Shown in pieces: positions 35,348-61,634 of a stretch of 64,000 bases of DNA. Below the pieces are notes generated by a model. The model ran no database searches, had not been told where the DNA came from, and saw nothing but the letters and a program-made list of their open reading frames with translations. Location of the stretch: NCBI RefSeq assembly GCF_000026545.1, contig NC_011601.1. One strand, given 5' to 3'. The DNA comes from Escherichia coli O127:H6 str. E2348/69. GTDB taxonomy: Bacteria; Pseudomonadota; Gammaproteobacteria; Enterobacterales; Enterobacteriaceae. Positions within the stretch are counted from its first letter, which is position 1; every line of letters begins with the position of its first letter. Made by a program: the position numbers and the translations under genes.

Positions 35348-35364
35348 ATTACCTTACAGGTAAT
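35348..35364. promoter_or_regulatory. Repressor operator, perfect ATTACC-TTACA-GGTAAT
   Basis: Exact match to the 17-bp palindrome that clusters at the cro/cI region. Confidence 0.7.
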
Positions 35365-35401
35365 TTACATTTCATGCTGGATAGTCCTGATATCTTCTGC
35401 T

Positions 35402-35421
35402 ACTGTATGTTTTATACAGTG
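35402..35421. promoter_or_regulatory. 7-5-7 palindrome ACTGTAT-GTTTT-ATACAGT (LexA-box-like but with 9-nt CTGT/ACAG spacing)
   Basis: TACTGTATGTTTTATACAGT directly upstream of the 86-aa rightward ORF. Confidence 0.4.
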
Positions 35422-35440
35422 ATTGCATGGAGAAGAAGAG

Positions 35441-35701
35441 ATGCAACGGCAGTATCACCATCCGCTGGAAGAAGGATTTGAGGAAAGAATACACACGCCG
35501 GTAGGCGTTAGATCCCTGGTGGAGGAATCGCACCTGATGAAGTTGCTGCGGGAACTCGATAAAGATGGCTTCAATGTTGATGGGCCACTTGCTGAACTGG
35601 TTGCTCTTGTGAACTACGTCACAAGTTCTCAAATGACCATGCAGGATCTGCAAACTCATCTCGATTACTGTGCGGAACAGTTACGTAAGCAAACCACTTA
35701 A
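35441..35701 (+). CDS. Acidic 86-aa protein of unknown function, opposite strand to structural genes
   Basis: ATG at 35441 behind GGAGAAGAAGAG. Flanked by an operator upstream and hairpin + GTGACATGTCAC downstream. Confidence 0.5.
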   Translation: MQRQYHHPLEEGFEERIHTPVGVRSLVEESHLMKLLRELDKDGFNVDGPLAELVALVNYVTSSQMTMQDLQTHLDYCAEQLRKQTT

Positions 35702-35702
35702 T

Positions 35703-35730
35703 GAAAAATAAAAGGCCGCTATTGCGGCCT
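35703..35730 (-). terminator. Intrinsic terminator ending the ejection-protein operon
   Basis: Minus strand reads AGGCCGC-AATA-GCGGCCT followed by TTTTATTTTTC. Confidence 0.75.
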
Positions 35731-35731
35731 A

Positions 35732-35743
35732 GTGACATGTCAC
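35732..35743. promoter_or_regulatory. Palindrome GTGACATGTCAC (copy 1 of 3)
   Basis: Perfect 12-bp palindrome. The 15-mer GTGACATGTCACACT is identical to the copy at 56018. Confidence 0.5.
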
Positions 35744-35750
35744 ACTCATG

Positions 35751-35891
35751 CTATGACAAACCTATGTACCCTGCTATACCAGATAATATTAAAACAACTG
35801 CGACGGCAAATTCCCCATCTTCAATGATACATTTACGGTTCATTACGACAAGCGCGACAAGTGCCAACACAACAAGAATTATAACAATCAT
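35751..35891 (-). CDS. 46-aa two-helix hydrophobic peptide (unannotated small ORF)
   Basis: MIVIILVVLALVALVVMNRKCIIEDGEFAVAVVLILSGIAGYIGLS. Starts 11 nt after the 824-aa gene stop and is followed by a terminator. Confidence 0.4.
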   Translation of the reverse strand: MIVIILVVLALVALVVMNRKCIIEDGEFAVAVVLILSGIAGYIGLS

Positions 35892-35901
35892 TTTCGCATC
35901 C

Positions 35902-38376
35902 TTATTGCGGAGTAACATCCTGAGGTCGCCACCAGTATGTCTGGTTAAATTCTTTCTTCGAACGCTGCTCCATCTTACGCAGATAGCCAGGGGAAAAATA
36001 TTCTTGCATCTGATTAAAGATCATATGATCAAGCGCAGCCTTCAGGTACCAGATGTTGGCACCAGGTGTCAGACCTTTTCCAAGCTTAACCAGATCACCA
36101 CCAGTTTGCTCGCTCTTACCTTCTACCGCATTCAGTGGAATACCCTGGCCTATTTTGATAACGTCATCGACCAGGCCAGCCACCGGTCCGAGCATTGAAG
36201 CCAGTGCGCCGCTTCCGTACCGGGTGTGATCAGACAACAGGAAATCACCGTACAGGCCAAGACCGCCGCCTTTCAGCAGAGCACCAAGCCAGAATTTAGC
36301 AGCATCTTCACCGACCATATCCCGCGGATTACGGCCTGATGCCATGTCATTTAGTTGCTGAGAAAGCGCGCCAAGTATTGTCGTGCTGGCTATAAACGTC
36401 GCGATATAAGCAGCCCGCCCACCAGCAGAAGGCATACCCATAGCCCGCGACCAGTGGCGCATCACGACAGAGATCGGGAATGACTTGAACAAGAATACGC
36501 TGCGGGTTAATTCACCTTTCCATGTTCCGCGCTGAATACCTGAACCGGTAACCATCTGCTCACGCGCGCCCGGAGTTATCACAGCCATGTCAACTTCTTC
36601 GGTAACCGCTCCGAGTAACTTACGCATTGCTTCAAACTTCACGCGCTCCGGTGATCCGAGGTGCTCTACAGCAGCATCGGGTATACGCATGATGCTTTCC
36701 GGAGTCAGCATCGTATCGTTGCCTTTCCCCCAGTCCTCCTGTTGCGCCAGTTTCCACACGCTCCAGTCGGTATCGGTGATTCCTTTGCTTTTCAGTATGC
36801 GGAAATCGTCATTAGACAGGCTTTTCAGATCCGGCGTTCTGGTGACAACATCACCAAGACTGCCCATCATAGTGACACCGTAGGCACGCTTGTGCGCGTC
36901 TGACCACGCAGTTAATCCACTGGCGCGCATAACCGCAGTTGCAGCCCACCGGGAGACAGACGGTCCCATATTATCCATCGCCCAGCGGTTAACGCTGCCG
37001 AGCAGTGATTCCATAGCCAAGCCAGCACGACGAGCCCTGGCCAATTCAGTGCGATTCGTTGGGTCCATAGCTTCAAGCTGGTTACGGAATAGCTGATTCA
37101 TCGGAAGGTTGGTAACCTTCGCTGACAGGTACATGGTTCCAAGATCAGAGAACGATGACAACAGAGCAGAACCGAGACGACTGGCAACCATCCAGTTGCG
37201 GATGTTATCCGACCAGCGCGCAATATGCGGGTTTGCAACAGGCTGAGTTTTACCAGAAATAAAGTTATACAGGTTCTCAGTATTGTTTGCCTGGCGCTCT
37301 ATACTACCGGTATCCTGCGGGTTAGCCGTAGCTGTCTCTGATTTCGTCTGATCCAGCAGTGAGCGGAACACATGATCCGGGTTTGGTCCGTAGGTTTCCA
37401 CCAGCGCAATGTCTTTACTGATACCTTCCAGGTGCCCTACCATGATTTCCCAGAGTGACCGGTCGCCGTACATCTGCTGGTACTGAAGGTATGAATCAGC
37501 GTCTTTAAAGTGGATTTGGCGTGAGGCGTTGCCACGGTTTGCCCGCGCACCGGAAATACGCATACCGGTATCAGTGAGTTTATTCAGGCCACCTGTGGCA
37601 ATCGTGTTATAGGCTTCACCGAGAAAAGCTGATAACTCAGTATCATTCATCAACTGGCCGTCGGCGCGTGTGTAATATTTGCGATCGAGTTTACCAATCA
37701 CATCACTTACCCACTTATCCTTCGATACCGCCCCAACCTTTTCCATAGAGTGGTGCTGTGGTATACCCCAGTTTTCCAGATATCCGATATCACCACCAGC
37801 ATCATTAAACCTGCGGCGCAGTAGCTCAGTAACTTCGCCCCAGGCTTTAGCCCCTTTCATGGCTTTCGCATTGCCAGTTTTCTGGCCGCGCATCTCAAAC
37901 ACCAGATCACGGACTCCGGCTTCATCTTCAAACAGACCGAAGAAACGAGGATCAACAGCCTCGAATACCTCCTGTAACTGGCTTAATGCGTAATCACGGG
38001 TCGCTTTCGTGCGTGACTCAACAGACAGAAAGTTTGATTTACCGTCAGCGCTGAAGGCGATCGTGCGGTTGAGTGCGCCTAGCTTTCCGTCAGCACCCTG
38101 ATAACTGTTAATGAAGTTGTCCAGGCGCTGACGCGCTGCGATGGTAAGCGCGACACGGCGTTTTTTCAGTGCCACCTCTCGCTGCAACTCTTCAGCCGCC
38201 AGTTGCCCGGCTCGGCGCAGGCGTTCAGCGTCGTTAAGTTGACGCCATGACATCGGATCGTCACGGGCAATAGATCGCATATTGCGGTAAATGCGGTCTT
38301 CGATATTCTGTATTTCTCGGGCTGTAAGAGTGCGCTGTGCTGCCTGTTGCACGGCCTGAATACATTCCTGTCTCAT
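35902..38376 (-). CDS. Ejection/internal core protein (824 aa)
   Basis: Third of three giant genes between the tail tube and the tailspike. Position equals T7 gp16 / epsilon15 core proteins. No enzymatic motif recognised. Confidence 0.6.
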   Translation of the reverse strand: MRQECIQAVQQAAQRTLTAREIQNIEDRIYRNMRSIARDDPMSWRQLNDAERLRRAGQLAAEELQREVALKKRRVALTIAARQRLDNFINSYQGADGKLGALNRTIAFSADGKSNFLSVESRTKATRDYALSQLQEVFEAVDPRFFGLFEDEAGVRDLVFEMRGQKTGNAKAMKGAKAWGEVTELLRRRFNDAGGDIGYLENWGIPQHHSMEKVGAVSKDKWVSDVIGKLDRKYYTRADGQLMNDTELSAFLGEAYNTIATGGLNKLTDTGMRISGARANRGNASRQIHFKDADSYLQYQQMYGDRSLWEIMVGHLEGISKDIALVETYGPNPDHVFRSLLDQTKSETATANPQDTGSIERQANNTENLYNFISGKTQPVANPHIARWSDNIRNWMVASRLGSALLSSFSDLGTMYLSAKVTNLPMNQLFRNQLEAMDPTNRTELARARRAGLAMESLLGSVNRWAMDNMGPSVSRWAATAVMRASGLTAWSDAHKRAYGVTMMGSLGDVVTRTPDLKSLSNDDFRILKSKGITDTDWSVWKLAQQEDWGKGNDTMLTPESIMRIPDAAVEHLGSPERVKFEAMRKLLGAVTEEVDMAVITPGAREQMVTGSGIQRGTWKGELTRSVFLFKSFPISVVMRHWSRAMGMPSAGGRAAYIATFIASTTILGALSQQLNDMASGRNPRDMVGEDAAKFWLGALLKGGGLGLYGDFLLSDHTRYGSGALASMLGPVAGLVDDVIKIGQGIPLNAVEGKSEQTGGDLVKLGKGLTPGANIWYLKAALDHMIFNQMQEYFSPGYLRKMEQRSKKEFNQTYWWRPQDVTPQ

Positions 38377-38380
38377 TCAA

Positions 38381-40183
38381 TTATCCTCTCAAGAAACACG
38401 CTACAGCCACGTCAAAAAGGCTGGAATCCTGTACTGCCTGCTCATTCTCTCTGCTCACTTCGTCCAGCACTTCCCGAGCGCTGCGCGACTGTGGGTTTCC
38501 GTCATCATCGAGAATGGTGATCATCATGTCAGGTGACTCAACAAGCGAGTCTTCAGCGATACGCAGATCCATATCTCCGGCCTGTTCAGCCGTTGGCCTT
38601 TGCTCTGCATGTCGCAATACAGCACCAGGTTCAAAAGGTGCAGCCTCGTCAGGAGTCCGCACTTCTGCTGTTTTATAGAATGACATGGCCTGTGCGTTAA
38701 GATCGCTTTCTGCCTGCTGGCGTCTGGCTAATTCAGCCCGCGCTTCAAAGTTAACCCCTCCCTCAACATTCGCCGCCAGATTATCCTTTGCCGTCTGTAG
38801 TCTGACCGACTCGTCATTGATACGCTGGTCAATATCACGCAGCCTTTCCTGACGCGCTGCACGTGAACGTGATAATTCACGTCCGCTGCCTGAAGGTTGT
38901 TCGTTCAGGACTCCTGAGCGTTCCTGGTTGAGTGTTTCAATGGATCTCTCGATGCCAGCGATATCAGTCTGCAACTGATTAACCTGCTCAACGTCTAAAG
39001 CCTGAGCCGCTTGCTGTTCCAGCGCTCTGGTATCAACAGCTATCTGAGTGCTTCCTTCTTCAGAGCGATACAGGGTTTCATCTATGGCCTGAGAAATAAG
39101 GTTTCTCCTCCCAGGAATATCGCTAAATGATGCTGGTTCGGCAATGCTGGCCACATCAACTGCACGACCCTGGCTTACATCGTTCATTGCTTTCTGTAGC
39201 GCCTGTATATGCGCATCACGTGACAGAACATTAACCGGAACACCAGGAGCAACATCGATCTCAGCGTGATGTGAGGCATTTGCTGCCAGCGCTGCATCCA
39301 CCTCCGCTGGGGAAAATTCAGGAGTTGCAGCGCTCTCACCGCGGGCGTTCAGGAACCTACCTACACCACCAAATGCCACACCAAGAACCGCATCGATGGC
39401 GATAGACTGGCGATCAAACACATCGTACTGAGCCGCCATTTCGTTATAACCACCATCACGCAGCGTCTTTGCAGTCAGCCCACGCTGGGCCATCCCAAAG
39501 GCAATGTTAGTTCCGGCTGCGTATGCGATATCTGGAGCAGCGCGAACAGCAGTAGCTGCAACATTACGCACAGCACTTTCACCTGTCCTCGCTAGTTGTG
39601 CGCCAACACTTTCTGCCAGCGCACCACCAGCGCGCAGACCGAGGCTCATAGGGATCAATGTACCAGCGCCAGCAGTGACACCCTGCACCAGACCAGCTTC
39701 CTGAGCGGTCCTGAAATCTACGCCCTGAGCAGTCAATTTCTCAAACTCAGAGAAGCCCTGCAGTGCAGTGACGGCAGCAGCACCACCGGCTGGACCGGCC
39801 AGCAGCGTACCAACGACAGCCTGCCCGCCCATATCGAACAGACCATTCAGTACCTGACCAGCAGTTCCTGTTGTGGCGGCGTCAGGAGTCAGGCGCTTAA
39901 CTTGCTGCTCTGCGAGTTTTCGCTGTTCGCCGATGTATTCAGCCGATGTATCATTGATGGAAGTGTTTTCGTTAACAAACTTAGCGATGGGTGAAACGAT
40001 CTTATCCATTCCAGCCCAAAGAAGCTGGTCTGGTTTGGCAACCAGTCCAGAGTAAAGGCCCGAAACAGCAGCAGTACCTGAGTTATCGAAGAAACCGACA
40101 TCGGTATTAAACCCTGCTGGGTTAGATGCCGCTTCATCCAGTTGCTGATTCTGGTTAACTGCGTTGAGACCAAAGTAACTCAT
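38381..40183 (-). CDS. Ejection/internal core protein (600 aa), Ala/Gly-rich N-half, coiled-coil C-half
   Basis: Large ORF overlapping the upstream gene stop by 4 nt. Composition typical of internal virion proteins. Confidence 0.6.
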   Translation of the reverse strand: MSYFGLNAVNQNQQLDEAASNPAGFNTDVGFFDNSGTAAVSGLYSGLVAKPDQLLWAGMDKIVSPIAKFVNENTSINDTSAEYIGEQRKLAEQQVKRLTPDAATTGTAGQVLNGLFDMGGQAVVGTLLAGPAGGAAAVTALQGFSEFEKLTAQGVDFRTAQEAGLVQGVTAGAGTLIPMSLGLRAGGALAESVGAQLARTGESAVRNVAATAVRAAPDIAYAAGTNIAFGMAQRGLTAKTLRDGGYNEMAAQYDVFDRQSIAIDAVLGVAFGGVGRFLNARGESAATPEFSPAEVDAALAANASHHAEIDVAPGVPVNVLSRDAHIQALQKAMNDVSQGRAVDVASIAEPASFSDIPGRRNLISQAIDETLYRSEEGSTQIAVDTRALEQQAAQALDVEQVNQLQTDIAGIERSIETLNQERSGVLNEQPSGSGRELSRSRAARQERLRDIDQRINDESVRLQTAKDNLAANVEGGVNFEARAELARRQQAESDLNAQAMSFYKTAEVRTPDEAAPFEPGAVLRHAEQRPTAEQAGDMDLRIAEDSLVESPDMMITILDDDGNPQSRSAREVLDEVSRENEQAVQDSSLFDVAVACFLRG

Positions 40184-42690
40184 TGCGGGATCCCCTCTGA
40201 GAATCTCTGGCGCTGTTGGGTAAGGTCGATGACGACAGGAGTTCCATCATCTTTCAGCAAATACCCAGTGCCGAGTTTCACCAGATACTGGCTATCTCCA
40301 TAGCTTTGCAGACCGTACTGGCCTGGCGGTGCTTTAATTCCTGCGCCAGTCACCTGAGTTTTCCATGCCTGATCAACTTGTTTATCAAATTGTTCGGCAG
40401 ACATCCCCCAAGGCAAAAGAACACTTCCCATGCCGTTATAATCGTGCACGCCACCAGTAGCTACGTTAACAGCCTGCTTCCATGTGTCACTGTCAACTTC
40501 ACCCGAAACCACACCCTTCTTCGCCATCACCCCAGCGTAATAGTCCTTTGCTATCTCATAGGCCATTGATGCACCCTGCGCGTCACCGGCAAACGCATCC
40601 TTCACCATGTCAGAAAACTCTAGTCGCAGATCGTTATCCTTCGGCATTGGTATGCCCTTAGCATCATCAGTTCCTTTACGAGCCGCGGCACCGGACAGGA
40701 TGGTTTGCGCTGCTGTTTCTGGTGATACAGAAACATCAGGGTTAAACCAGTTTTTCTCAGCTACCACTCCTCCTGGCTTATCCATCAGGATCCCAGCTAC
40801 TGCTGCTGATGGCGCATTGGTGCTTATCTGCTGAAGCGCTGACATATATACCTGACCGCCCCCGGTGCTCTGCCGAATGGTGTCGAGATATGCAGTCTGC
40901 TGAGAAACTGGTGCATCGCGGAAGAAAGCCCCGATCTGATTCGCCTCTTCTTTGGAAAAGAACGTCAGCGGCGTACCGTATGACTTAGCCAGATCTACAG
41001 CCTGAGAAGCCCGAAGGGAAATCGTCTGGCCGAAATTGTTCTGGTTGGTCATATCAATAGGCTTTGTTTGACCGGAAGAAAGTGAAAACTGAATTGGGTC
41101 TGCTTTACGTTGCGCAAGAACAGTACTGGCAGCAGAGACAACGGCGTCATAGGTTTGGGCGCGCGCTGCATATCCTTCGCCAGTTTCACCAGTATCTGGC
41201 TTCAGATTTTCTACTGCTGCCTGAATGCTGCTGGTCGGCATGTTGCGAAACGATCCTATGTACTGCCCTGCGATCTGCGTGTTGCGAAACTCGGTATAGC
41301 GTAGATTTCCCTCCCGCACGCCGTAGGCGGCGAGGAAGTCGTTCTGCGTAGGCGCGTTCGGGAAATCAACTCCGCGCATGTATGCCGCGCTGGCATCGCG
41401 TACGCGGCTGTCGATATTGGTGCGGTATTCAGCCTGCTGCTGTTTACGGATCTGGTCAGCCTGGCGAAGGAATGTCGCCTGGGCCTCCGGAGATGCTGCA
41501 TCGAATGCCGCATTGCCGGTATAGCGCTTTGTGCTGGTTGGAAGTTGAGAGAGGCCAATTGCCGCGCTAACACCGGTAGCAAGTTGCTGATCGCTGTACG
41601 GCTGACTGCCGTTCTCATGTTGGATAATGGAGGCACACAAAGCCTTTAGCGTATCAGGGTTTGAGGCATCAAGCGGCTGGTCAGGCGTCACACCGAGTTG
41701 AGCACATACTGCCTGAATATAGGCGTCAGTGTTGTTATTGTCAGACGGCGGTGCCCAGCGATTAATGATGTCGTTTACAGTATCAATACCCTGTCTCTGG
41801 TATGACAGCAGGTTGCGTCCAAGCGCCCGAATGCCGTGTTCTGGCGTTTCGAATTTTGCAAATCGACCATCATCACCGGTCTGGCCCACCCACGGATTGG
41901 TTTTGCTGTATTCGAGGTTTCCTGGGTTGTTGTTGCGAATGCCACGGGCGCTATCACCAGAACCACCTTCTGATACTGCACGGCGGGAACCAGTAACTGT
42001 ATCGCTTAACTCGCCATTGCTCTGGATGAACTCGATCGAATTATTTGCCGACCACTGAGAAAGGGAAGCATCGGCGACCTTCTCTTTGAACTCAATCTTT
42101 TTGGCCTGAATCTGTTCAGAACTCCAGCCATGAGCGGAGCCATAATCTTCGATCTGCTGGAAAGTCTGCTGGTTGTAGAGAACATAATTGGCATTATCAC
42201 CATAGGCGGCAGCAGCCAGTTTTCCGTTGTTCGCCAGAGTCGCCTGGAACTGACCTTCTTCATAGGCATTGAGTTGGCTTATCTCATGCCTGCCAGCCTG
42301 GGTGGTGAACTGAATGCGCTGCTGCTGAGCCTGCTGTATAAATCCAGCCCGGGCACCTTCCGGCAATGTCATCGCGATCTGCTCTGCCTGAGCATCGAAT
42401 TGCTGGGTATAAACCTGCCCCTTGCCAAGAGCGTTCTTACCCTGCATGTTTAGAAGCCCGGTATCCGGGTTGGTTAGCAGATCACTGGAAATCTGGCTGA
42501 GTTGCAATGATGCATCCTGAGCCTGAGCAACATCCGCGCGCTGTTTTGCCTGAGCAAAAACATCAAGTGCTTTACCACCAACCTGCGTCAGGGCATCTCC
42601 GATATTTGGCTGATCGAATGCCTGAAAACCAGGAGACTGAAACCCTCTGCTTTCGACCTGACGACCGGTGACTGTTGGTACTGTTGGCAT
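40180..42690 (-). CDS. Ejection/internal core protein (836 aa) with possible muralytic segment
   Basis: Contains ARGIRNNNPGNLEY...HGIRALGRNLLSY. I recall this motif from phage virion-associated cell-wall-active proteins (uncertain). Confidence 0.55.
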   Translation of the reverse strand: MPTVPTVTGRQVESRGFQSPGFQAFDQPNIGDALTQVGGKALDVFAQAKQRADVAQAQDASLQLSQISSDLLTNPDTGLLNMQGKNALGKGQVYTQQFDAQAEQIAMTLPEGARAGFIQQAQQQRIQFTTQAGRHEISQLNAYEEGQFQATLANNGKLAAAAYGDNANYVLYNQQTFQQIEDYGSAHGWSSEQIQAKKIEFKEKVADASLSQWSANNSIEFIQSNGELSDTVTGSRRAVSEGGSGDSARGIRNNNPGNLEYSKTNPWVGQTGDDGRFAKFETPEHGIRALGRNLLSYQRQGIDTVNDIINRWAPPSDNNNTDAYIQAVCAQLGVTPDQPLDASNPDTLKALCASIIQHENGSQPYSDQQLATGVSAAIGLSQLPTSTKRYTGNAAFDAASPEAQATFLRQADQIRKQQQAEYRTNIDSRVRDASAAYMRGVDFPNAPTQNDFLAAYGVREGNLRYTEFRNTQIAGQYIGSFRNMPTSSIQAAVENLKPDTGETGEGYAARAQTYDAVVSAASTVLAQRKADPIQFSLSSGQTKPIDMTNQNNFGQTISLRASQAVDLAKSYGTPLTFFSKEEANQIGAFFRDAPVSQQTAYLDTIRQSTGGGQVYMSALQQISTNAPSAAVAGILMDKPGGVVAEKNWFNPDVSVSPETAAQTILSGAAARKGTDDAKGIPMPKDNDLRLEFSDMVKDAFAGDAQGASMAYEIAKDYYAGVMAKKGVVSGEVDSDTWKQAVNVATGGVHDYNGMGSVLLPWGMSAEQFDKQVDQAWKTQVTGAGIKAPPGQYGLQSYGDSQYLVKLGTGYLLKDDGTPVVIDLTQQRQRFSEGIPQ

Positions 42691-42702
42691 TTCTATGTCT
42701 CC

Positions 42703-52504: not shown

Positions 52505-52593
52505 AGCAATAGCTCCGTACGCAATTAAATTATTACCAATTTAACCACATATGATTTATTTAGCGTAGGATATTGACACTTATAACATCAGAT

Positions 52594-52610
52594 ATTACCT
52601 TTTAGGTAAT
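52594..52610. promoter_or_regulatory. Repressor operator, perfect ATTACC-TTTTA-GGTAAT, at 5' edge of the RNA island
   Basis: Exact 17-bp operator palindrome. TTGACA at 52573-52578 lies upstream but no good -10 is visible. Confidence 0.7.
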
Positions 52611-52855
52611 TGGTTCGTGTGTTGAATTGATGAATTGCGGAGGTGGTTATGTAACCGCTTGTGCAGTAGCCCGGAGTACCGCAGCAATAAATTGGGCTTA
52701 AAAGTAAAGGCGGTGGATAAGCGGAGCATCATCTCCGCACATAACTAAAAGCGCGCTTCAGTGAATGACCTTTGAGCCTGGTCGTTAAATCCAAACGGTG
52801 GAGTGCGCTTTCAGGTGTGTAGCAGTACGGCATATGGCACATGTGCCGCAGCGGT

Positions 52856-52891
52856 CCGGATGGGTTCCCTTGATGCTACTTCCCCAGCCGG
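52856..52891 (+). repeat. Hairpin 1 presenting loop motif TTCCCTTGATGCT (52865-52877)
   Basis: CCGGATGGG / CCCAGCCGG stem (one mismatch) with an 18-nt loop. Confidence 0.55.
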
Positions 52892-53055
52892 GTAGCCGGA
52901 ATGTGCAAGCCAGTGTTAGGTAAGCACGGACAGACGATTCACCATCGTGGCGATACGGTGTGACACCTCGGAAGAGACGAGGATGCAACGATGATAGCAT
53001 TGGGGTGACCGGTTAATCCCATGACGATAACCGATACAGGCGCAGTGCTCTCTTC

Positions 53056-53169
53056 GTTGTGGTTAGCTCAGATAGGTTAGAGCTCCATCCATGCTTGCCA
53101 TTGCTGCATGGGCGGGGAATGGGTTCCGAAAGGATCGCCGCGCAGGTTCGAATCCTGCACCACAACCCA
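53056..53169 (+). ncRNA. tRNA-like module (114 nt) with encoded CCA; canonical acceptor, D and T arms but no canonical anticodon loop
   Basis: G-1 + TTGTGGT pairs with ACCACAA + C73, then CCA. D arm is GCTC-AGATAGGTTA-GAGC. T arm is GCAGG-TTCGAAT-CCTGC. 57 nt lie between D and T stems, where a class I tRNA has about 23. Confidence 0.6.
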
Positions 53170-53224
53170 ATCACGCCTTAGGACCGTGATGAAGCGCCCA
53201 TAAGAACAATGCTGTGTAGCCTTT

Positions 53225-53259
53225 GGCGGTGGCAGTTTCCCTTGATGCTGACCACCGTC
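53225..53259 (+). repeat. Hairpin 2 presenting loop motif TTCCCTTGATGCT (53237-53249)
   Basis: GGCGGTGG / CCACCGTC stem with a 19-nt loop. Confidence 0.55.
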
Positions 53260-53338
53260 ACTTTTACACCAGAACGCCATTGCGATGACGTTGCGCTGTA
53301 AACCCGTAAGCCATGGAAGGCACCCTTGCTTCCATTTC

Positions 53339-53363
53339 GCCCGGTTCGTCCGGGCATTTTTTT
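53339..53363 (+). terminator. Intrinsic terminator between structured RNA and the 143-aa ORF
   Basis: GCCCGG-TTCGT-CCGGGC followed by A and T7. The RBS of the next ORF starts 1 nt later. Confidence 0.85.
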
Positions 53364-53375
53364 AAGGTGATTAGA

Positions 53376-53807: not shown

Positions 53808-53810
53808 GAC

Positions 53811-53824: not shown

Positions 53825-53827
53825 ACT

Positions 53828-55332: not shown

Positions 55333-55922
55333 TCTTCACCACCAGCCCGCTCTTTCACGCGACGGCGGGCCTTAGCCATGCGGTCGGCAATGGTGACGGT
55401 GCCGGAAACTTCCAGGCGCTCTTTGAACGCATTGACGTCGACGTGCTTACCAATCAGCTCGAGGTTCTTCACCTTGTCAGGCCATTTGATTTTCTTGAGG
55501 ATGGTCTCGATTGATGTCTCATCCATGTTCATGATGGTAGAGGACAGGTCGAAACCACTCAGTGTGGTGCGCCATATCTTCGGCCACTCGCGGATAGGCT
55601 TCAGGGTGCCATCATCGTTCAGGATGTCGATCACATCCATCTGGTCGATTTCCACCAGGCGAAGTAGCACGTAATCAGCACTGACGCGCAAACGCTTGTT
55701 GCGTTCCTCCATCAGCTCGGCGATCCGTTTCTGGATGCGCTCATCACGCATCATGACACTGGCTTTAACCGCTGCCGTATTAGGCGAGAACCCTGCGTTA
55801 ATCGCCGCCTGCGTCTGATTCTCAGGGCATTTGGTATATTCCTGCGCATAAGCCTCCTGCATCGCTGTTAGGGGCTTGTACTGAGTTGATTTTCGTTTTG
55901 GTGCTTTTGGTTCTGCGGGCAT
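55329..55922 (-). CDS. Terminase small subunit (197 aa)
   Basis: Start set at ATG 55922 (MPAEPKAPKRK..). Carries an HTH-like AINAGFSPNTAAVKASVMM segment typical of small terminases. Confidence 0.75.
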   Translation of the reverse strand: MPAEPKAPKRKSTQYKPLTAMQEAYAQEYTKCPENQTQAAINAGFSPNTAAVKASVMMRDERIQKRIAELMEERNKRLRVSADYVLLRLVEIDQMDVIDILNDDGTLKPIREWPKIWRTTLSGFDLSSTIMNMDETSIETILKKIKWPDKVKNLELIGKHVDVNAFKERLEVSGTVTIADRMAKARRRVKERAGGEE

Positions 55923-55941
55923 TGTTACCACCGAAGTAATA

Positions 55942-55958
55942 ATTACCGTTTTGGTAAT
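55942..55958. promoter_or_regulatory. Repressor operator, perfect ATTACC-GTTTT-GGTAAT, 20 bp upstream of terS
   Basis: Exact operator palindrome between the early-operon terminator and terS. Confidence 0.7.
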
Positions 55959-55966
55959 AGTAACAC

Positions 55967-55994
55967 GCAAAACAAAGCCGCCATAGTCGGCGGC
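55967..55994 (-). terminator. Intrinsic terminator separating early genes from the late (terS) operon
   Basis: Minus strand reads GCCGCC-GACTAT-GGCGGC followed by TTTGTTTTG. Confidence 0.75.
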
Positions 55995-56017
55995 CATTGC
56001 AATTTATTGTCGATATC

Positions 56018-56029
56018 GTGACATGTCAC
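56018..56029. promoter_or_regulatory. Palindrome GTGACATGTCAC (copy 3 of 3)
   Basis: Overlaps the stop of the 112-aa gene, upstream of the terS leader. Confidence 0.5.
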
Positions 56030-56364
56030 ACTGATAATTTAGTTTCATGCCAGCCACGAGTTACCCAACATGCCGAATCACCATCGCACGGACACGACTT
56101 AACTGGTAATACATCGCCGCATTTTACGCAGCGGTTAGCACTGATTGACTTGATACGAACACGAACGCGGGCATTATCCTGACGGATAAGCAACGCGATG
56201 TACTCGCTCATATCATACGGCGCACGACCAGGGCGACGGGCGGCGCAGTTACGCGCCAGCATTTCCATTTCCTGCTCGTCGAGTTGCAATTCCATCTTGC
56301 GGTTACCGGCTTCAGCCAGACGGGCACGCTGCGCGGCTTTGCGTTCTGCTGTGGATTTAGCCAC
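56026..56364 (-). CDS. 112-aa putative DNA-binding protein (RHH-like N-terminus, Cys-rich C-terminus), GTG start
   Basis: MAKSTAERKAAQRARLAEAG..MELQLDEQEMEMLA resembles ribbon-helix-helix regulators. The C-terminus has CVKCG..CPCDGDSAC. Last early gene before terS. Confidence 0.5.
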   Translation of the reverse strand: MAKSTAERKAAQRARLAEAGNRKMELQLDEQEMEMLARNCAARRPGRAPYDMSEYIALLIRQDNARVRVRIKSISANRCVKCGDVLPVKSCPCDGDSACWVTRGWHETKLSV

Positions 56365-56479
56365 GGATAGCGCTCCATGCCAGATTAATTAATGATTCCC
56401 AGGCGATGTAAACCCTGATTCCTGCAGCCACGCCAAACCCGATTATCATGGAGTAAAGCAGAGCGTCGCACTTGGACAT
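56357..56479 (-). CDS. 40-aa hydrophobic peptide (unannotated small ORF)
   Basis: MSKCDALLYSMIIGFGVAAGIRVYIAWESLINLAWSAIRG. ATGA overlap with the upstream stop and GTGGCTAA overlap with the downstream start. Confidence 0.4.
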   Translation of the reverse strand: MSKCDALLYSMIIGFGVAAGIRVYIAWESLINLAWSAIRG

Positions 56480-56901
56480 CACTTCACCTCCTGCTGTGGT
56501 GCTGCTGCTAAATGCTCGACACCTTTAGCCCAAATAGCTTTGATGGTCGTCCATGTGACAGGAACGGTGATTTCAATTCTTCCGCTGCCGTCGCAGGTTT
56601 CGCAATCATCATCACCAAAACACTCTGGGCAGTTTATAAATTTCGTTTCTGAAAACTCACCGGACAACACACCCTTTGCGCCGTTCTCAGCGGTTAGCTT
56701 CTTCGGCACTAGTACGTAACCATCCGGAGATACCGGAGAGTTGCCAGCCTGAAGCATGGCTGCGCGGAGTTGTTGTAGTTCGGCCAGCGCTAGCATTACA
56801 TCATCAATGACAGGCAACTCCATTTCATACAATTCAAGAGAATCCCTAGCCACACGGATAAGTACGCTCAGACGCTCGTCTGTTAGGTTGTTATTGGTCA
56901 T
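56479..56901 (-). CDS. 140-aa early protein with DnaJ-type CxxCxGxG zinc-finger-like motif
   Basis: CPECFGDDDCETCDGSGRI. N-terminus MTNNNLTDERL is paralogous to the next gene upstream. Confidence 0.55.
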   Translation of the reverse strand: MTNNNLTDERLSVLIRVARDSLELYEMELPVIDDVMLALAELQQLRAAMLQAGNSPVSPDGYVLVPKKLTAENGAKGVLSGEFSETKFINCPECFGDDDCETCDGSGRIEITVPVTWTTIKAIWAKGVEHLAAAPQQEVK

Positions 56902-57194
56902 TTTTCATCTCCTTTAAGCATGGCGGCGCGGCAGTCACATTCGATGAGTATCGGCTCTCCCCATGGCTGAACGCCGCCACTATCAGCCATTCCGGTGTCG
57001 TTACATTTAGGACAAGGTACTGGCTCCGCACTAAACGATGCAATCACTCCATCAATCACCTTCACAGCATCAGCCATTGCGTAGCCGAGATTGCCTCCGT
57101 CACTTTGTGCTGCTGCTTTGCTGAGTATTTCGCTTATCTGGTGCAGGCGATCGAGTGATACAGGACCGTTCGCCGGGTGGTTGTTAGTTGTCAT
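56898..57194 (-). CDS. 98-aa early protein, paralogue of the 140-aa protein
   Basis: MTTNNHP..LDRLHQISEIL and CPKCNDTGM..CDC motifs. Confidence 0.55.
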   Translation of the reverse strand: MTTNNHPANGPVSLDRLHQISEILSKAAAQSDGGNLGYAMADAVKVIDGVIASFSAEPVPCPKCNDTGMADSGGVQPWGEPILIECDCRAAMLKGDEK

Positions 57195-57204
57195 GGGTTA
57201 GTCC

Positions 57205-57411
57205 TCAGTTGTAACCAATCGGATTAACTGCAACCAGAACGCCGTCTGCGAACAGGTCTTTAATAATGTGCTCACACGGCTCGCCTGTTTCGTACTCTTC
57301 AACCAGGTACGTGTCGCCATCTTCATTGAGATAAACAGGAAAGATGGAACCATTGATAAAGTAGGTGCCGTTGTTATCAAGAATCTTTGCTTCTGCAATT
57401 TGTGTTTTCAT
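57205..57411 (-). CDS. 68-aa early protein of unknown function
   Basis: ATG 57411 behind GGGAGG (MKTQIAEAKILDNNG..). The track start 57438 would overlap the upstream gene. Confidence 0.5.
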   Translation of the reverse strand: MKTQIAEAKILDNNGTYFINGSIFPVYLNEDGDTYLVEEYETGEPCEHIIKDLFADGVLVAVNPIGYN

Positions 57412-57413
57412 TG

Positions 57414-57665
57414 TTAGTCCTCCCACTCTGTATCCCATTCAACCCAAGCGCCTTCACCATCAGCCTCGATAACACCCTGATTGCCACACTGCGGACACTT
57501 AACCAGGTCACCGCCGTAAAGGTATGTCCCTGCCAATGAGCGACTGATAACTTCAATCCCCTTGCTGCACTGGCAGTGTTCGCACGAATTAAGCCAGTCA
57601 ACGCGATATAACACTGGCTCCCACAACATGGTTTTGCTCTCACTTTGGAACAGCAATCTGCTCAT
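57414..57665 (-). CDS. 83-aa zinc-ribbon early protein
   Basis: CEHCQC(23)CPQCG four-Cys pattern. Confidence 0.5.
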   Translation of the reverse strand: MSRLLFQSESKTMLWEPVLYRVDWLNSCEHCQCSKGIEVISRSLAGTYLYGGDLVKCPQCGNQGVIEADGEGAWVEWDTEWED

Positions 57666-57964
57666 ATCTCCCCCTTCACGCCAATGCCAGCGGCGCTTTC
57701 TAACAAGTCGTCAGCGGCCTGAATATCAGCGCCATCCAGCGATGCGCCATCAGCCGCAGCACGGAAACAGGTTTTGACAAATTCCTTCAGCCCCGCATTC
57801 TCCGCAGCCAGAGCATTACTACGAGCAAGTTGCACATCCAACTGCGTTGCCAGATCGCTAATCAGTTGTGCCACGTCTCGCACATCGACGGCGCCGCATG
57901 ATGCCTTCAGCTCTGCGGACTGATCATGTCCGCGCTTTACCAGATCACTCACTTTGCATTCCAT
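57662..57964 (-). CDS. 100-aa acidic helical early protein
   Basis: ATGA overlap with the downstream gene. Confidence 0.45.
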   Translation of the reverse strand: MECKVSDLVKRGHDQSAELKASCGAVDVRDVAQLISDLATQLDVQLARSNALAAENAGLKEFVKTCFRAAADGASLDGADIQAADDLLESAAGIGVKGEI

Positions 57965-58025
57965 CTTTACCCCCGCTTACCCGTATAAGTTATTGATTAC
58001 GTTGATATCCAAAAGGATCATCGTT

Positions 58026-58367
58026 TCAGAACGTTTCGCAGTTCCAGCCACCACCTTTGCTTTTCGGTATTGGCTTTAGCGCTCTAAACGTGAATGGGTA
58101 CATGTCTGCGGCTACCTTGATTTTCACCCTGGCGTCATCAGTCCAGAACCCTTTCACCTCGTGCAATTCCATCTCTCCGGTGGTTAGCATCACCGCGAAG
58201 TCCGGCGTGTAGAACGTGTTATCAGCCAGCCTCAGCTTGATGCCCTCAAATTTGTACCAGGCTACGACAGTGCCGGTTATGCGCTTTAGGTGTGCCGCAT
58301 AAGCCTCTTCCGTCTTGTTCATCTGGCCTGTCTTGAGCCTTCCGAGCGCCTGCAACTGCCTTTTCAT
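58026..58367 (-). CDS. PD-(D/E)XK-type small nuclease (DUF1064-like, possible Holliday junction resolvase)
   Basis: 113 aa with YTPDF..ELHEVKG (D..E.K) motif. Position after the replication genes. Confidence 0.55.
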   Translation of the reverse strand: MKRQLQALGRLKTGQMNKTEEAYAAHLKRITGTVVAWYKFEGIKLRLADNTFYTPDFAVMLTTGEMELHEVKGFWTDDARVKIKVAADMYPFTFRALKPIPKSKGGGWNCETF

Positions 58368-58431
58368 GATTTACCTCTCAGGTAATTTAAAACCACAAAC
58401 GAGTTAATTTCAATAGCAATGCGCATATTTT

Positions 58432-58448
58432 ATTACCTTTTTGGTAAT
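58432..58448. promoter_or_regulatory. Repressor operator, perfect ATTACC-TTTTT-GGTAAT, inside the early operon
   Basis: Lies between the P-like gene stop (58485) and the nuclease gene start (58367). Confidence 0.7.
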
Positions 58449-58484
58449 TCACCAGATGTAAAAAAATGCGCTACTGCGCCGGTA

Positions 58485-59270
58485 TTACTTGATGAGTCCC
58501 GCTGCCTTCCCTCGTCTGTATTCCTCCATAAGCCACTGTGCCGGTGTTATCCCTCCCAGGGTGGCTGCGTTCGGCATGCATCCGAAACTTCGCCCTGGTG
58601 GATGATAGGCGTTACCTGAGCCTGTTGGTGGTGTGCTCATTGGTTCTGGCTTGGCCTGTATGCTGAGTATTGGATCTGGAATCTGGTGACCGGATGCCAC
58701 TTTTGCCGACCATTCATCCAGCAGCTTTCGCGCATGCTTCTCGACTTCAGCCTCACTCAGTTGTCGCTGATACATCGCCCTGCGGGTATCACACACAATC
58801 CAGTACATGACCGGGTGGCGCCACGGGAATCTCTCGGGTCCACCAGGCTGGAGGCTTTTCTCTTTGGCGTAACGGTGAAACTCACCCATCACGTCTTCGA
58901 TGCTGATTCCCAGCACCATCTTGCTGTCTTTGCACCACTTGATGAATTGCCCAGGCGAAGGCCAGAACGGTGATTCACTGGCGCGGGCATGGCGCATTCC
59001 TGCCGATACCTGCTCACGGGTACGAACACCACCTTCAGCGAATGCAGCGATCCACTGCTGTTTTGCCGCTGTCTCCTGTGCCGGAGTCTTCAGGTTGGTC
59101 TGTTCTGCTGCCGGGAATAGCTGCTTAAGCTGTTTAAACAGGGCATCCACAAGTCGCTCTGCCGTAATGTTCACAACGTTGTCGCTACCTGCATACTGAC
59201 GGTCTGATCCGGTTAATTGGGCCATAGCCTCAGCGTCTCGGTTCTGGATGGCGGTAAATACGTTATTCAC
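58485..59270 (-). CDS. Lambda P-like replicative helicase loader (GTG start)
   Basis: Central ..QQWIAAFAEGGVRTREQVSAGMRHARASESPFWPSPGQFIKWC aligns by eye with lambda P ..RRQWVLAFRENGITTMEQVNAGMRVARRQNRPFLPSPGQFVAWC. GTGA overlap with the O-like stop behind GGAGG. Confidence 0.8.
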   Translation of the reverse strand: MNNVFTAIQNRDAEAMAQLTGSDRQYAGSDNVVNITAERLVDALFKQLKQLFPAAEQTNLKTPAQETAAKQQWIAAFAEGGVRTREQVSAGMRHARASESPFWPSPGQFIKWCKDSKMVLGISIEDVMGEFHRYAKEKSLQPGGPERFPWRHPVMYWIVCDTRRAMYQRQLSEAEVEKHARKLLDEWSAKVASGHQIPDPILSIQAKPEPMSTPPTGSGNAYHPPGRSFGCMPNAATLGGITPAQWLMEEYRRGKAAGLIK

Positions 59271-60073
59271 AGGAAATCCTCCCACGCCTCTGGACTGTTC
59301 CAGTGCGGTACGTTGTTTTCAGGTGAGGTCAGTTTGTTCTGTCTGCTGATCTGCAGACGTCTGGCAAGTTTTTGCTCCCATTGCGCATGGTGGAAAGCCT
59401 TACCCTCGGCCATCCAGTAAACCCTGAACTCTGCAAGCTCCTGCGGTGTTGGCTGGCAATCCAGGTTAATACCCTGCAGAGATGACACCCGGAGAAAATC
59501 ATCCGATGGTGACCAGAGCTCATGCATGACAAATTTCCCGAATTGCCCAAGTCCACCAGGAGGGACAAAGTTGTTAATTACGGCGTTGTTGGCGTCAGGT
59601 TCAGGCGGTACTAAACCACCAGTTTTATCGCCCCTCTCCTTCTCTTGGTTATATGACTGGTTAACTGATAGGTTCTGCATCCCGTTTTTGGGATCATTCA
59701 ACTTCCCGTTTTTGGGATCATTCAACTTCCCGTTTTTGGGTATACTCCCAATTTTGGTAACATTACCGTTTTTGGGTATACTCCCAATTTTGGTAACATT
59801 ACCGTTTTTGGGTATGTTTAAAGAGAAAACCCGGACCCTTCTTGTTGCCCCTTTTCTTTCTCCTGTATCTGAAATTAACCCCATACCGATGAGCGAAATC
59901 AGCCCTGCCTGAACCGTTTTTTTATTCAGGCTTGTGTCGGTAACCAGGCGTTCGATGCTTGGATAACACAGGTTATATTCATCGGCTCGATCAGCCATCG
60001 AGAGCAGGATGAGTTTCAGTGATGAGCTGCCCGGATTTGTTTTCCATGCCCACTCTGTTGCGTGTCTGCTCAT
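59267..60073 (-). CDS. Replication initiator (O-like; N-terminal winged-HTH, internal iteron-encoded repeats, DnaT-like C-terminus)
   Basis: 268 aa. The peptide repeats PKNGNVTKIGSI x2 and PKNGKLND x2 are encoded by the ori iterons. Sits upstream of the P-like gene. Confidence 0.75.
   Translation of the reverse strand: MSRHATEWAWKTNPGSSSLKLILLSMADRADEYNLCYPSIERLVTDTSLNKKTVQAGLISLIGMGLISDTGERKGATRRVRVFSLNIPKNGNVTKIGSIPKNGNVTKIGSIPKNGKLNDPKNGKLNDPKNGMQNLSVNQSYNQEKERGDKTGGLVPPEPDANNAVINNFVPPGGLGQFGKFVMHELWSPSDDFLRVSSLQGINLDCQPTPQELAEFRVYWMAEGKAFHHAQWEQKLARRLQISRQNKLTSPENNVPHWNSPEAWEDFL
59681..59813. repeat. Origin of replication iterons inside the O-like gene
   Basis: CCCGTTTTTGGG(A/T) at 59681, 59705 and 59729 (24-bp period). 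Then CCCAATTTTGGTA / ACCGTTTTTGGGT alternating at 59747, 59765, 59783 and 59801 (18-bp period). Confidence 0.75.
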
Positions 60074-60088
60074 GGTAAATACCTGTCG

Positions 60089-60289
60089 TCAGCTTGAATG
60101 TTGCAGGCTGGCTTCGGCCATGAGCTGCTTTATTTCTGCCTGGCGGCGCAGGCTTGTGTTGATGGCGCACGTAACGCAGTGCCCGTTATAAACATAACGT
60201 TCACTGTCATGACCATGCTTACACTGCTTGCCGGTGTAATAACGCTTAAGACCTGCCTTTGCAGCGTCAATACGAGTAATAATCTCCAT
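60089..60289 (-). CDS. 66-aa zinc-ribbon protein (CxH..CxxC), possible regulator
   Basis: YYTGKQCKHGHDSERYVYNGHCVTC pattern seen in small phage regulators. Lies between the cro-like and O-like genes. Confidence 0.5.
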   Translation of the reverse strand: MEIITRIDAAKAGLKRYYTGKQCKHGHDSERYVYNGHCVTCAINTSLRRQAEIKQLMAEASLQHSS

Positions 60290-60349
60290 TGCACAACCTC
60301 ATTACCGTTTACTATTACGATGATTTTGATGCAGGAAGAAAAAAAGATC

Positions 60350-60364
60350 AACCGTATATGGTTT
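60350..60364. promoter_or_regulatory. AACCGTATATGGTTT motif, 61 bp upstream of the zinc-ribbon gene
   Basis: One mismatch from the palindrome at 30216. Confidence 0.4.
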
Positions 60365-60367
60365 TTT

Positions 60368-60384
60368 ATTACCAGAAAGGTGTT
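60368..60384. promoter_or_regulatory. Degenerate operator ATTACC-AGAAA-GGTGTT
   Basis: Left half perfect; right half matches 4 of 6. Confidence 0.4.
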
Positions 60385-60436
60385 TTATGCAGGAAGGAGC
60401 CGCCATGGTATGACGGCATTGATGGGTTCAGAGGGA

Positions 60437-60670
60437 TTATCGGTCGTAGAAGAAGAGCACTAATTCAGGTTTAGACTTTGTCCATTCGCGGGAGCGACAC
60501 GCTTTAAAAAGACCTTCCATCAGACGCTTACCCGGCATCTTACGGCGACCGGTCAGGTGCGTCTGGATGTAATGACTGGTGGTACCGGCTTCAACTGCAA
60601 ATGCTTCACGCTCATCAGGAGACAGCCCCAGCCAGTGCTTTTTGAAATCAAATTTTTTTTCGTCACTCAT
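60437..60670 (-). CDS. Cro-like HTH regulator (77 aa)
   Basis: First leftward gene from the operator cluster. HTH segment FAVEAGTTSHYIQTHLTG. Confidence 0.65.
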   Translation of the reverse strand: MSDEKKFDFKKHWLGLSPDEREAFAVEAGTTSHYIQTHLTGRRKMPGKRLMEGLFKACRSREWTKSKPELVLFFYDR

Positions 60671-60708
60671 ATTTTGCTTATCTCAGCCTGTCTATTCATA
60701 TCTGAATT

Positions 60709-60772
60709 ATTACCTTTCTGGTGAAAAAATCAATGATTATTACCATTATGGTAACTTTACCTTTATGGTAAT
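60709..60772. promoter_or_regulatory. Right operator cluster (three sites) with divergent cro and cI promoters
   Basis: ATTACC-TTTCT-GGTGAA (60709-25), ATTACC-ATTAT-GGTAAC (60739-55), TTTACC-TTTAT-GGTAAT (60756-72). Leftward promoter candidate: -35 TTGATT (60728-33), -10 AATAAT (60706-11), 16-nt spacer. Confidence 0.7.
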
Positions 60773-60825
60773 ATTCATTTAAATTTAGAAGGTTAGGTAA
60801 TAATAAATGGGCAAATACAATAGCT

Positions 60826-61422
60826 ATGAAAAGTATTTATGACATAAGACGCAAAAACCTTAACGAAATCATTCGCCGGGATTTCGATGACACCCAGTTA
60901 CGCTTTGCAGAACGGGTGAAGCGTTCGCAGAACCTGGTCAACAGGTGGTGTACTGGTATCAAAAATATCGGACCTAATGCCGCGCGTATCATCGAAGAAG
61001 CAGCCCGCAAAGAAAAGTTCTGGCTTGATGTCGATCACGAACTGGACGCAGTACAGGATGATATCTTTATTCCGGCCACTGAAGATGGAGAATGGACTGT
61101 AGAGAAGCAGGCCGCCGCCACGCTCAATGCCTGGATGAGAAAGAACAGTGAAATGACATCCGAAAAGAAAGTTGCTGTTGCAGCTGGCATTGGACCTGCC
61201 ACCGTTAACCGCATCATGAAAGCGGAAGTCAGCACAACCATCGGCGTTCTTTCCTCCCTGGCGCGCGCGTTCGGGCATGAAGCATACGAGATGATTATTC
61301 CCGTCGGCTCACCTGGTGTTATCGACTATGACCACCGGATGTATGCAGCCCTGCCACAGGAAGAGAAAAACAAGATCACCTCATTCATCAACTTCGTGTT
61401 TGAGCAGAACAAAAGCAAGTAA
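60826..61422 (+). CDS. Prophage maintenance repressor (CI-like) with two HTH_3/XRE-type domains and no S24 peptidase domain
   Basis: 198 aa. HTH 1 is TQLRFAERVKRSQNLVNRWCTG. HTH 2 is SEKKVAVAAGIGPATVNRIMKAE. Divergent from cro across the operators. No Ala-Gly/Ser-Lys autocleavage module. Confidence 0.7.
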   Translation: MKSIYDIRRKNLNEIIRRDFDDTQLRFAERVKRSQNLVNRWCTGIKNIGPNAARIIEEAARKEKFWLDVDHELDAVQDDIFIPATEDGEWTVEKQAAATLNAWMRKNSEMTSEKKVAVAAGIGPATVNRIMKAEVSTTIGVLSSLARAFGHEAYEMIIPVGSPGVIDYDHRMYAALPQEEKNKITSFINFVFEQNKSK

Positions 61423-61479
61423 TCCCCCGCCATTCTGACGCTTTACCTGCCCAATGGCGGTAGGCTCACGCCTCACTCA

Positions 61480-61634
61480 ATTACCAAAATGGTAATTTTT
61501 TCTCGTCATACCTATTGACACAATCACTTTTTGATCTGATTATTACCTAAAAGGTAATACAAGAGCGCATTGCTCAGGCAGAAACCACCACTTCGTGGCT
61601 TTCCTGTATCTACTAGTATTACCAAAATGGTAAT
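61480..61634. promoter_or_regulatory. Left operator cluster (three perfect sites) with rightward PL-like promoter
   Basis: ATTACC-AAAAT-GGTAAT (61480-96), ATTACC-TAAAA-GGTAAT (61542-58), ATTACC-AAAAT-GGTAAT (61618-34). -35 TTGACA at 61515-20, -10 GATTAT at 61538-43. Confidence 0.7.

Follow-up and report, generated by a model that had tools for sequence, protein, structure and literature searches.

Dispersed 17-bp palindromes, the probable operators of the repressor, in an epsilon15/SPC32H-type prophage of Escherichia coli E2348/69

The Salmonella phages epsilon15 and SPC32H share an immunity system that consists of a repressor, Rep, and an antirepressor, Ant. On palindromic DNA Rep binds as a tetramer, in which the DNA-binding pairs are drawn from different dimers (PMC9638917), its tetramerisation domain is similar to TetDloop, a DNA-looping domain (PMC9986798), and induction in the SPC32H family proceeds through an antirepressor that is controlled by LexA (PMC7380047). 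Here we analyse a system of this type in a prophage from enteropathogenic Escherichia coli (EPEC), which is contained in a window of 64,000 nucleotides of E. coli O127:H6 str. E2348/69 (contig NC_011601.1, assembly GCF_000026545.1). In this prophage, copies of the palindrome ATTACC-N5-GGTAAT are found around the repressor gene and also before genes that are far away from it.

The dispersed layout as such is not new, because the GenBank record of epsilon15 (AY150271.2) marks repressor sites at the same seven places. Its seven 'protein_bind, repressor' features lie at 12-27 (before terS), at 2931-2947 (before gp3/portal), at 19895-19911 (between gp19, which is ant, and the tailspike gene), at 32479, 32554 and 32616 (all three to the left of the repressor gene) and at 35906-35922 (replication/nuclease). 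Our scan of the record found perfect ATTACC-N5-GGTAAT exactly at these features, and the seven perfect sites of the window are their one-to-one homologues with the same gene offsets. The seven-site layout is already known, in other words, from a phage that is 95% identical; a full-text search of the literature for the IUPAC operator consensus gave no match. What is added here is the fixed geometry throughout the genus, the paired 62-bp architecture, the extended -10 element at terS and a second motif at late promoters, and these additions make the function of the distal sites directly testable. The question is a modest one, since both the sites and the Rep-Ant switch are already present in the literature and in public annotation. 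What is gained is a concrete and testable picture of how these podoviruses silence their packaging, head, tail and nin-like operons, and of how one antirepressor could release them.

The explanation that we prefer, with a probability of about 0.72, is that Rep operators head most of the transcription units of the prophage. Rep would act directly at the early promoters PL and PR, at the promoter of the nuclease operon and at terS, it would probably repress gp3 and ant/tailspike as well, directly or in another way, and Ant would free these units after an SOS response.

On its left the window consists of E. coli chromosome that is identical to strain E2348/69, and the prophage is inserted at the 3' end of guaA, which is the attachment site of epsilon15 and phiV10. 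Judged by its sequence the prophage is an epsilon15/SPC32H-type Uetakevirus. The DNA of the immunity region is 94.7-96.3% identical to the Salmonella phages epsilon15, SPN1S and SPC32H and to other Uetakevirus members, and the structural region matches this group at 90-95%. Among E. coli genomes, 555 match the immunity region at least in part, and just 5 of them do so over 80% or more of its length. The rep gene (60826..61422, + strand) encodes a repressor of 198 amino acids with 97% full-length identity to SPC32H Rep (PDB 5D50_A) and 98% identity to the epsilon15 repressor. In the EPEC prophage the immunity system of epsilon15 and SPC32H is intact, and its operator set is complete.

The operator set and its conservation

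A pattern search of the window recovered exactly the seven perfect sites that had been listed by a previous, sequence-only reading of this DNA, starting at 35348, 52594, 55942, 58432, 61480, 61542 and 61618. Chance expectations were obtained from dinucleotide-preserving shuffles, which gave 0.01 perfect copies and in none of 100 cases seven or more. When up to two mismatches were allowed, 18 operator-like sites were found in the window as compared to 1.69 expected. Among them are the four near-copies that had been noticed before, those at 60739 and 60756 with one mismatch and those at 60709 and 60368 with two, as well as two copies that had been overlooked, namely 58370 (one mismatch, the partner of 58432) and 55924 (two mismatches, a weak site that adjoins the terS site).

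All seven perfect sites are intergenic and lie within the prophage, and the host portion of the window (1-28000) contains just three two-mismatch matches, which is the chance level. Counting sites with 0-1 mismatch, there are 10 of these symmetric 17-mers in the approximately 36 kb of prophage inside the window, and the set occupies about 8-10 loci. In epsilon15 all sites of this quality (11/11) fall into the non-coding 6.6% of the genome (P about 1e-13). The centres of the half-sites are 11 bp apart, which fits a dimeric helix-turn-helix (HTH) protein. The palindromes are almost certainly binding sites of the prophage repressor Rep, and operators of this CI-like repressor are the best reading of them, possibly shared with the Cro-like protein.

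To compare relatives, tblastn was used to place each site relative to a gene start, both in nine complete genomes of Uetakevirus and in six prophages that a profile of Rep had picked up (Citrobacter werkmanii, C. braakii, Klebsiella pneumoniae, Scandinavium, Superficieibacter and Candidatus Erwinia dacicola). These 15 genomes come from six genera and have Rep proteins with 42-100% identity to that of the window; sites with 0-2 mismatches were counted where the region was available. The centre of the terS site lies at -28 to -30 from the gene start in 13/13 genomes and that of the gp3 site at -98/-99 in 11/11, to which two perfect sites can be added whose anchor gene is just off the locus. The single site between ant and the tailspike gene is found at -81 to -85 from the former and at -106 to -114 from the latter, each in 9/9. 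Before the DUF1064 nuclease gene a pair of sites at -73 and -11, 61-62 bp apart, is present in 15/15 genomes (the RuvC-type genomes, too, have a pair with the same spacing), and at PL a pair 61-63 bp apart is likewise present in 15/15. A site before the second rightward gene, which corresponds to 60368 in the window and lies about -450 from the rep start, was found in 11/15, and a variant ATCACC-N5-GGTAAT at -104 from the lysis cassette in 6/9, this last one being absent from our prophage.

A scan of related phages for site position, as the sequence-only reading had proposed, shows that the distances to terS, to gp3, to ant/tailspike and to the nuclease gene are fixed throughout the 15 genomes. 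The distal sites are therefore not accidents, and the lack of positional conservation that was to refute the earlier reading is not observed. In the alignments the half-sites are invariant and the spacers and flanks drift. The stretch NLVNRW, which belongs to the recognition helix of the N-terminal domain of Rep, is invariant in all nine proteins, which explains why such divergent repressors share one half-site. Related proteins from Hydrogenovibrio, Thiomicrospira and Paraburkholderia consist of the N-terminal domain only and have different recognition helices; there no such sites were found, and these are not phages of this kind. Its conservation across six host genera makes the operator set a hallmark of the genus.

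Promoters at the operators and competing explanations

At three places a promoter is overlapped by an operator. The first is PL, a promoter with 10/12 consensus matches (TTGACA-17-GATTAT, 61515..61543, + strand) that is conserved in 14 genomes. A perfect operator at 61480..61496, homologous to the annotated epsilon15 site 32616-32632, lies 18 bp upstream of its -35, and a second one at 61542..61558, whose centre is 62 bp from that of the first, overlaps the -10/+1 region. A third perfect operator on this OL side (61618..61634) has its centre 22 bp upstream of the gene that opens the leftward early operon (ATG 61647) and is found only in epsilon15-type and Klebsiella-type genomes.

The second place is the nuclease gene (DUF1064/PDDEXK, 58026-58367, - strand). 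The perfect operator at 58432..58448 had been described as lying inside the early operon, and it does lie between the P-like and the nuclease genes, but it follows just after the terminator of the P-like gene (stem 58468-58479, T-run on the - strand) and is one of a pair around a promoter of its own. This sigma-70-like promoter (TTGAAA-(17/18)-TTAAAT/TAAATT, 58384..58413, - strand), which drives the nuclease/nin-like operon and keeps both its -35 and its -10 in six aligned genomes, sits between the paired operators. The downstream one (58370..58386, one mismatch) is 62 bp centre-to-centre from 58432 and overlaps both the -10 and the +1, and also the ribosome-binding site from which the nuclease gene is translated.

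The third place is terS (ATG 55922). Its perfect operator (55942..55958), the homologue of the annotated epsilon15 site 12-27, is centred 28 bp before the start codon. As had been noticed earlier, it lies just upstream of the gene and after a terminator; the ATG is 19 bp away. This intrinsic terminator (55976..55995, - strand, with an 8-bp stem of which 6 pairs are G-C, and a T-tract) closes the nin-like operon directly upstream of the operator. The operator is adjoined by an extended -10-like element, TGTTACTAT (55957-65, - strand), which is conserved as TGnTA[CG]TAT in 11 genomes, and the weak second site occupies 55924-55940.

In each of these three cases the -10 and the operator share two bases, which end the former and begin the latter, and Rep bound there would therefore occlude both the -10 and the start site and block RNA polymerase. 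As the operator overlaps a conserved -10 at the nuclease gene and at terS, direct repression beyond PL and PR is plausible. On the OR side, between the divergent rep and cro-like genes, three imperfect operators form a cluster (60709..60772; 60709 with two mismatches, 60739 and 60756 with one each), and a PR-like promoter (TTGATT-16-AATAAT, 60733-60706, - strand) overlaps the 60709 site. The rightward early operon begins with the cro-like gene (60437..60670, - strand; 77 amino acids, a homologue of epsilon15 gp39), and the weak two-mismatch site at 60368..60384 separates it from the next gene (60089-60289, - strand).

At gp3 and at ant/tailspike the arrangement is different. The perfect gp3/portal operator (52594..52610, homologous to epsilon15 2931-2947) is centred 98 bp before the gp3 ATG (52504, - strand); the earlier observation that it marks the 5' edge of an RNA island is correct, as it lies between gp3 and this divergent island. 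An invariant block closer to the gene (52533..52556, - strand) holds the element CATATGTGGTT and also GGTAATAAT, an operator half-site fused to a -10-like hexamer, and the 17-mer built on this half-site is centred 61 bp from the operator centre. The sequence TGTTATAAG just downstream of the gp3 operator is found only in epsilon15-type genomes. The ant/tailspike operator (35348..35364, perfect, homologous to epsilon15 19895-19911) lies, as reported before, between the two genes and is centred 85 bp upstream of the start codon of ant and 114 bp upstream of that of the tailspike gene (35242). A candidate tailspike promoter (TTCATA-17-TAGAAT, 35293..35321, - strand) has a conserved ATTACC half-site (35299-35304) adjoining its -10. 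Both gp3 and tailspike show a conserved GGTAAT half-site fused to a -10, in the forms GGTAATAAT and GGTAATAGAAT, and both operators are situated 50-70 bp upstream of the candidate late promoters. No conserved promoter that overlaps the operator was found at either place.

GGTAATAAT recurs elsewhere, at 60796-60804 (a candidate PRM) and at 60706-60714 (PR), in addition to 52533-52541 at the gp3 promoter.

The late promoters have a second conserved element in common, CATATNNGGTT, often in the form of the palindrome AACC-N6-GGTT, with 6 matches on the late-gene strand as compared to 0.44 expected. It is located on the - strand before the lysis cassette (gp23; 30217-30230), the tailspike gene (35309-35322), gp3 (52543-52556) and gp40 (60350-60363). 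The same four places carry it in epsilon15, SPC32H and 65FD, and in phiV10 and Tyrion it is found near three or four of them. It may represent a late or middle promoter element or the site of another regulator.

Taken as a mechanism, the preferred explanation would run as follows. Rep, an HTH protein of the epsilon15/SPC32H type, would bind DNA as a tetramer and be inactivated by LexA-controlled Ant instead of by cleavage, and its operators would stand at the head of nearly every transcription unit, beyond PL and PR. At PL, at the nuclease/nin-like promoter and at terS, Rep on the -10/+1 would block RNA polymerase directly. PL and the nuclease promoter have a second operator 62 bp upstream, a distance of about six helical turns, and a single tetramer could hold the two with the promoter enclosed between them; this spacing fits a tetramer that offers two DNA-binding pairs (PMC9638917, PMC9986798). 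At gp3 and ant/tailspike we infer that Rep at the strong site helps to fill the promoter-proximal GGTAAT half-site or silences the units in some other way. Once Ant is produced after SOS, all units would be released at the same time. The comparison of genomes gives good support to the prediction that the repressor directly controls several transcription units, and the occupancy of the distal sites by Rep, together with a regulatory effect there, is inferred.

Several points weigh against this explanation. The mechanism of repression by Rep has not been extensively characterised (PMC9986798), and we called promoters from consensus matches, which in total are about as numerous as expected by chance. 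ATTACC is kept in all 36 phage records with a Rep homologue and in the six prophages, which leaves no variant half-site for an argument from covariation. The operator before the lysis cassette that 6/9 phages possess is absent here, which means that not every transcription unit needs an operator. Finally, the gp3 and ant/tailspike operators do not overlap the best promoter candidates. The sequence-only reading had suggested that the repressor clamps late, middle and moron units, and this is consistent with the operators that overlap the -10 at the nuclease gene and terS; at gp3 and ant/tailspike such overlap is missing, and clamping there stays unproven because the operators miss the best promoter candidates.

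A more far-reaching version would see in Uetakevirus a clamp on the whole genome which replaces the late-gene switch. Rep tetramers would be placed at the head of every transcription unit and bridge each strong operator to a second operator or to a -10 half-site 49-62 bp away, a single SOS-induced antirepressor would free all of them at once, and AACC-N6-GGTT (CATATNNGGTT) at the late promoters would mark a further co-regulator. We consider this version tentative and rather doubtful.

Alternatively, the distal single sites might bind Rep without any control of a local promoter, either as anchors of long-range loops between operators that tetramers bridge, or as a sink that buffers the level of free Rep, with the late operons being silent for want of an activator. 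Long-range looping between sites is in itself plausible, given that DNA is bound by a tetramer of SPC32H Rep (PMC9638917, PMC9986798), and a tetramer with two DNA-binding pairs and a tetramerisation domain of the looping type would suit such anchors. The position of the gp3 and ant/tailspike operators upstream of their candidate promoters instead of on them points in the same direction, and a dedicated activator could bind to the separate CATATNNGGTT of the late promoters. However, the terS and nuclease operators overlap conserved -10 elements, and offsets to gene starts that are fixed within 1-3 bp are tighter than a mere anchor needs, which makes this alternative unlikely.

A third explanation assigns the sites mainly to the Cro-like protein of 77 amino acids, or to another phage regulator of lytic growth, and leaves Rep relevant only at OL/OR. 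In lambda-type switches Cro and CI share their operators. The Cro-like protein is also better conserved than Rep (66-100% identity across nine genomes as compared to 42-100%), which would match an invariant half-site. Yet it matched no Pfam family, and hence no HTH family, the recognition-helix stretch of Rep is likewise invariant, and the annotators of epsilon15 credited the sites to the repressor. Binding by the Cro-like protein is, moreover, not mutually exclusive with binding by Rep; as a replacement for Rep at the distal sites we regard it as quite improbable.

That the palindromes are chance or compositional repeats, RNA hairpins or terminators is hardly credible: they are palindromic and AT-rich and several stand beside terminators, but their number far exceeds the shuffles, their half-sites are invariant instead of covarying and spaced as for a dimeric HTH protein, and the hairpin reading was rejected because imperfect copies break the pairing on one side without compensation (TTTACC...GGTAAT, ATTACC...GGTAAA).

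Antirepressor, origin iterons and neighbouring features

The domains of Rep are an N-terminal HTH DNA-binding domain, a middle HTH_3-like domain and a C-terminal tetramerisation domain. A Pfam search of the protein of the window found HTH families only, with HTH_3 at residues 104-150, and no S24 autocleavage peptidase domain. The HTH_3 match corresponds to the middle domain, which is termed the dimerisation domain in the literature, and not to the N-terminal DNA-binding domain. Rep therefore has two HTH-like folds, one in the middle domain and one in the N-terminal domain. A repressor with HTH domains and without S24 fits the published induction through a LexA-controlled antirepressor (PMC7380047).

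The open reading frame of 86 amino acids next to the tailspike gene, which had been taken for an anonymous moron, is the known antirepressor gene ant (35441..35701, + strand), the product of which shares 85/86 residues with SPC32H Ant (PDB 5D50_E). It is preceded by a LexA box, TACTGTATGTTTTATACAGT (35401..35420), with one extra T as compared to its relatives. The core is 17 nt long here (CTGTATGTTTTATACAG, 35403-35419), and the canonical 16-nt core is found in NZ_CP059840.2 (the same strain in another assembly), epsilon15, SPC32H, 65FD and EC.W1-9. The extra T could be a sequencing difference in a T-run, or it could be a real variant that weakens the control of ant by LexA.

Five copies of the core CCGTTTTTGGG form the iterons of the replication origin (59682..59815), inside the DnaT-like gene, with periods of 24 and 36 bp. 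Two of the five contain the operator-like ATTACCGTTTTTGGGTAT (59762 and 59798), from which cross-talk between immunity and replication had been proposed. This is not supported, as ATTACC is here the flank of a variant iteron and either the right half or the spacing fails: read as operators, the copies have five mismatches in the right half at the 5-nt spacer, or two mismatches and a 6-nt spacer. We therefore rejected the iterons as Rep operators and do not count them in the operator set. Three of the five copies read TCCCGTTTTTGGGA, a palindrome like that of lambda O, and the other two TTACCGTTTTTGGGT; ATTACC occurs in 2/5 iterons here and in 1/5 in phiV10 and EC.W1-9, which have the same replication module.

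When the window is compared to NZ_CP059840.2 (our locus L009), there is a 24-bp insertion/deletion between 58448 and 60368, near 59680-59740 of the window. As it equals one 24-bp iteron unit, it suggests that the iteron copy number varies between stocks or assemblies. In the nin-like region RefSeq annotates three truncated pseudogenes (L009 14123-15608, about 56450-57950 in the window), suggesting that the prophage is partly decayed.

Within the RNA island (52620-53350) a tRNA-like sequence of approximately 113 nt lies at about 53057-53169 (+ strand) and has good acceptor and T-arm ends. In RefSeq it is annotated as a pseudogenic tRNA-Gly, and a tRNA-Arg occupies the homologous place in SPC32H. 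ARAGORN found nothing in the prophage, nor did Rfam at the gathering threshold, the RNA island included.

At 30164-30350 the O-antigen conversion module differs, with the junction falling between the lost ATCACC-N5-GGTAAT operator and a retained CATATATGGTT element. A conserved two-mismatch site, ATTACCTTAAAGGTATA, precedes int by about 58 bp in every Uetakevirus genome that was examined; it is situated at L009 3666-3682 and thus outside the window. It was left out of the operator count because the annotators of epsilon15 mark an integrase-binding (arm) site there, and it may serve as such a site, as a weak operator or in both ways.

Comparison with known systems

By its sequence the system is of the epsilon15/SPC32H Rep-Ant immunity type, all the defining features of which were found at this level. 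With epsilon15 it shares the 17-bp palindrome, its seven positions, the guaA attachment site and a repressor that is 98% identical. It differs in the host, which is Salmonella for epsilon15, in the replication module (here DnaT-like and P-like), in the O-antigen conversion module and the tailspike, and in that the weak operator before the lysis cassette is missing. With the Rep-Ant system of SPC32H (PDB 5D50/5D4Z) it has in common the closely matching Rep (97%) and Ant (85/86), the LexA box, the non-cleavable repressor without S24 and the operator layout, the difference being the one extra T in the LexA box.

The resemblance to OL/OR of lambda consists in several 17-bp palindromic operators that flank the repressor gene and overlap divergent early promoters, where cooperative or looped binding is plausible. 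However, the operators of lambda are confined to OL/OR, whereas here they are also found at terS, gp3, ant/tailspike and the nuclease gene, and operator pairs 62 bp apart around single promoters are likewise unlike lambda. In addition, lambda CI is a dimer that is cleavable in a RecA-dependent manner and forms an octamer, whereas this Rep would be a tetramer that is removed by an antirepressor.

The stoperators of the mycobacteriophages L5 and Bxb1 are also repressor sites that are spread over the whole genome in short intergenic gaps (PMC9283540), and as with stoperators several of the sites described here directly follow terminators, where bound repressor could also block read-through. The resemblance does not go beyond this dispersal: stoperators are asymmetric sites of 13-14 bp, bound by a monomer, present in dozens per genome and acting on elongation in an orientation-dependent manner (PMC9283540), whereas the sites of this prophage are symmetric 17-mers at a handful of loci (about 8-10), several of them lying on promoters.

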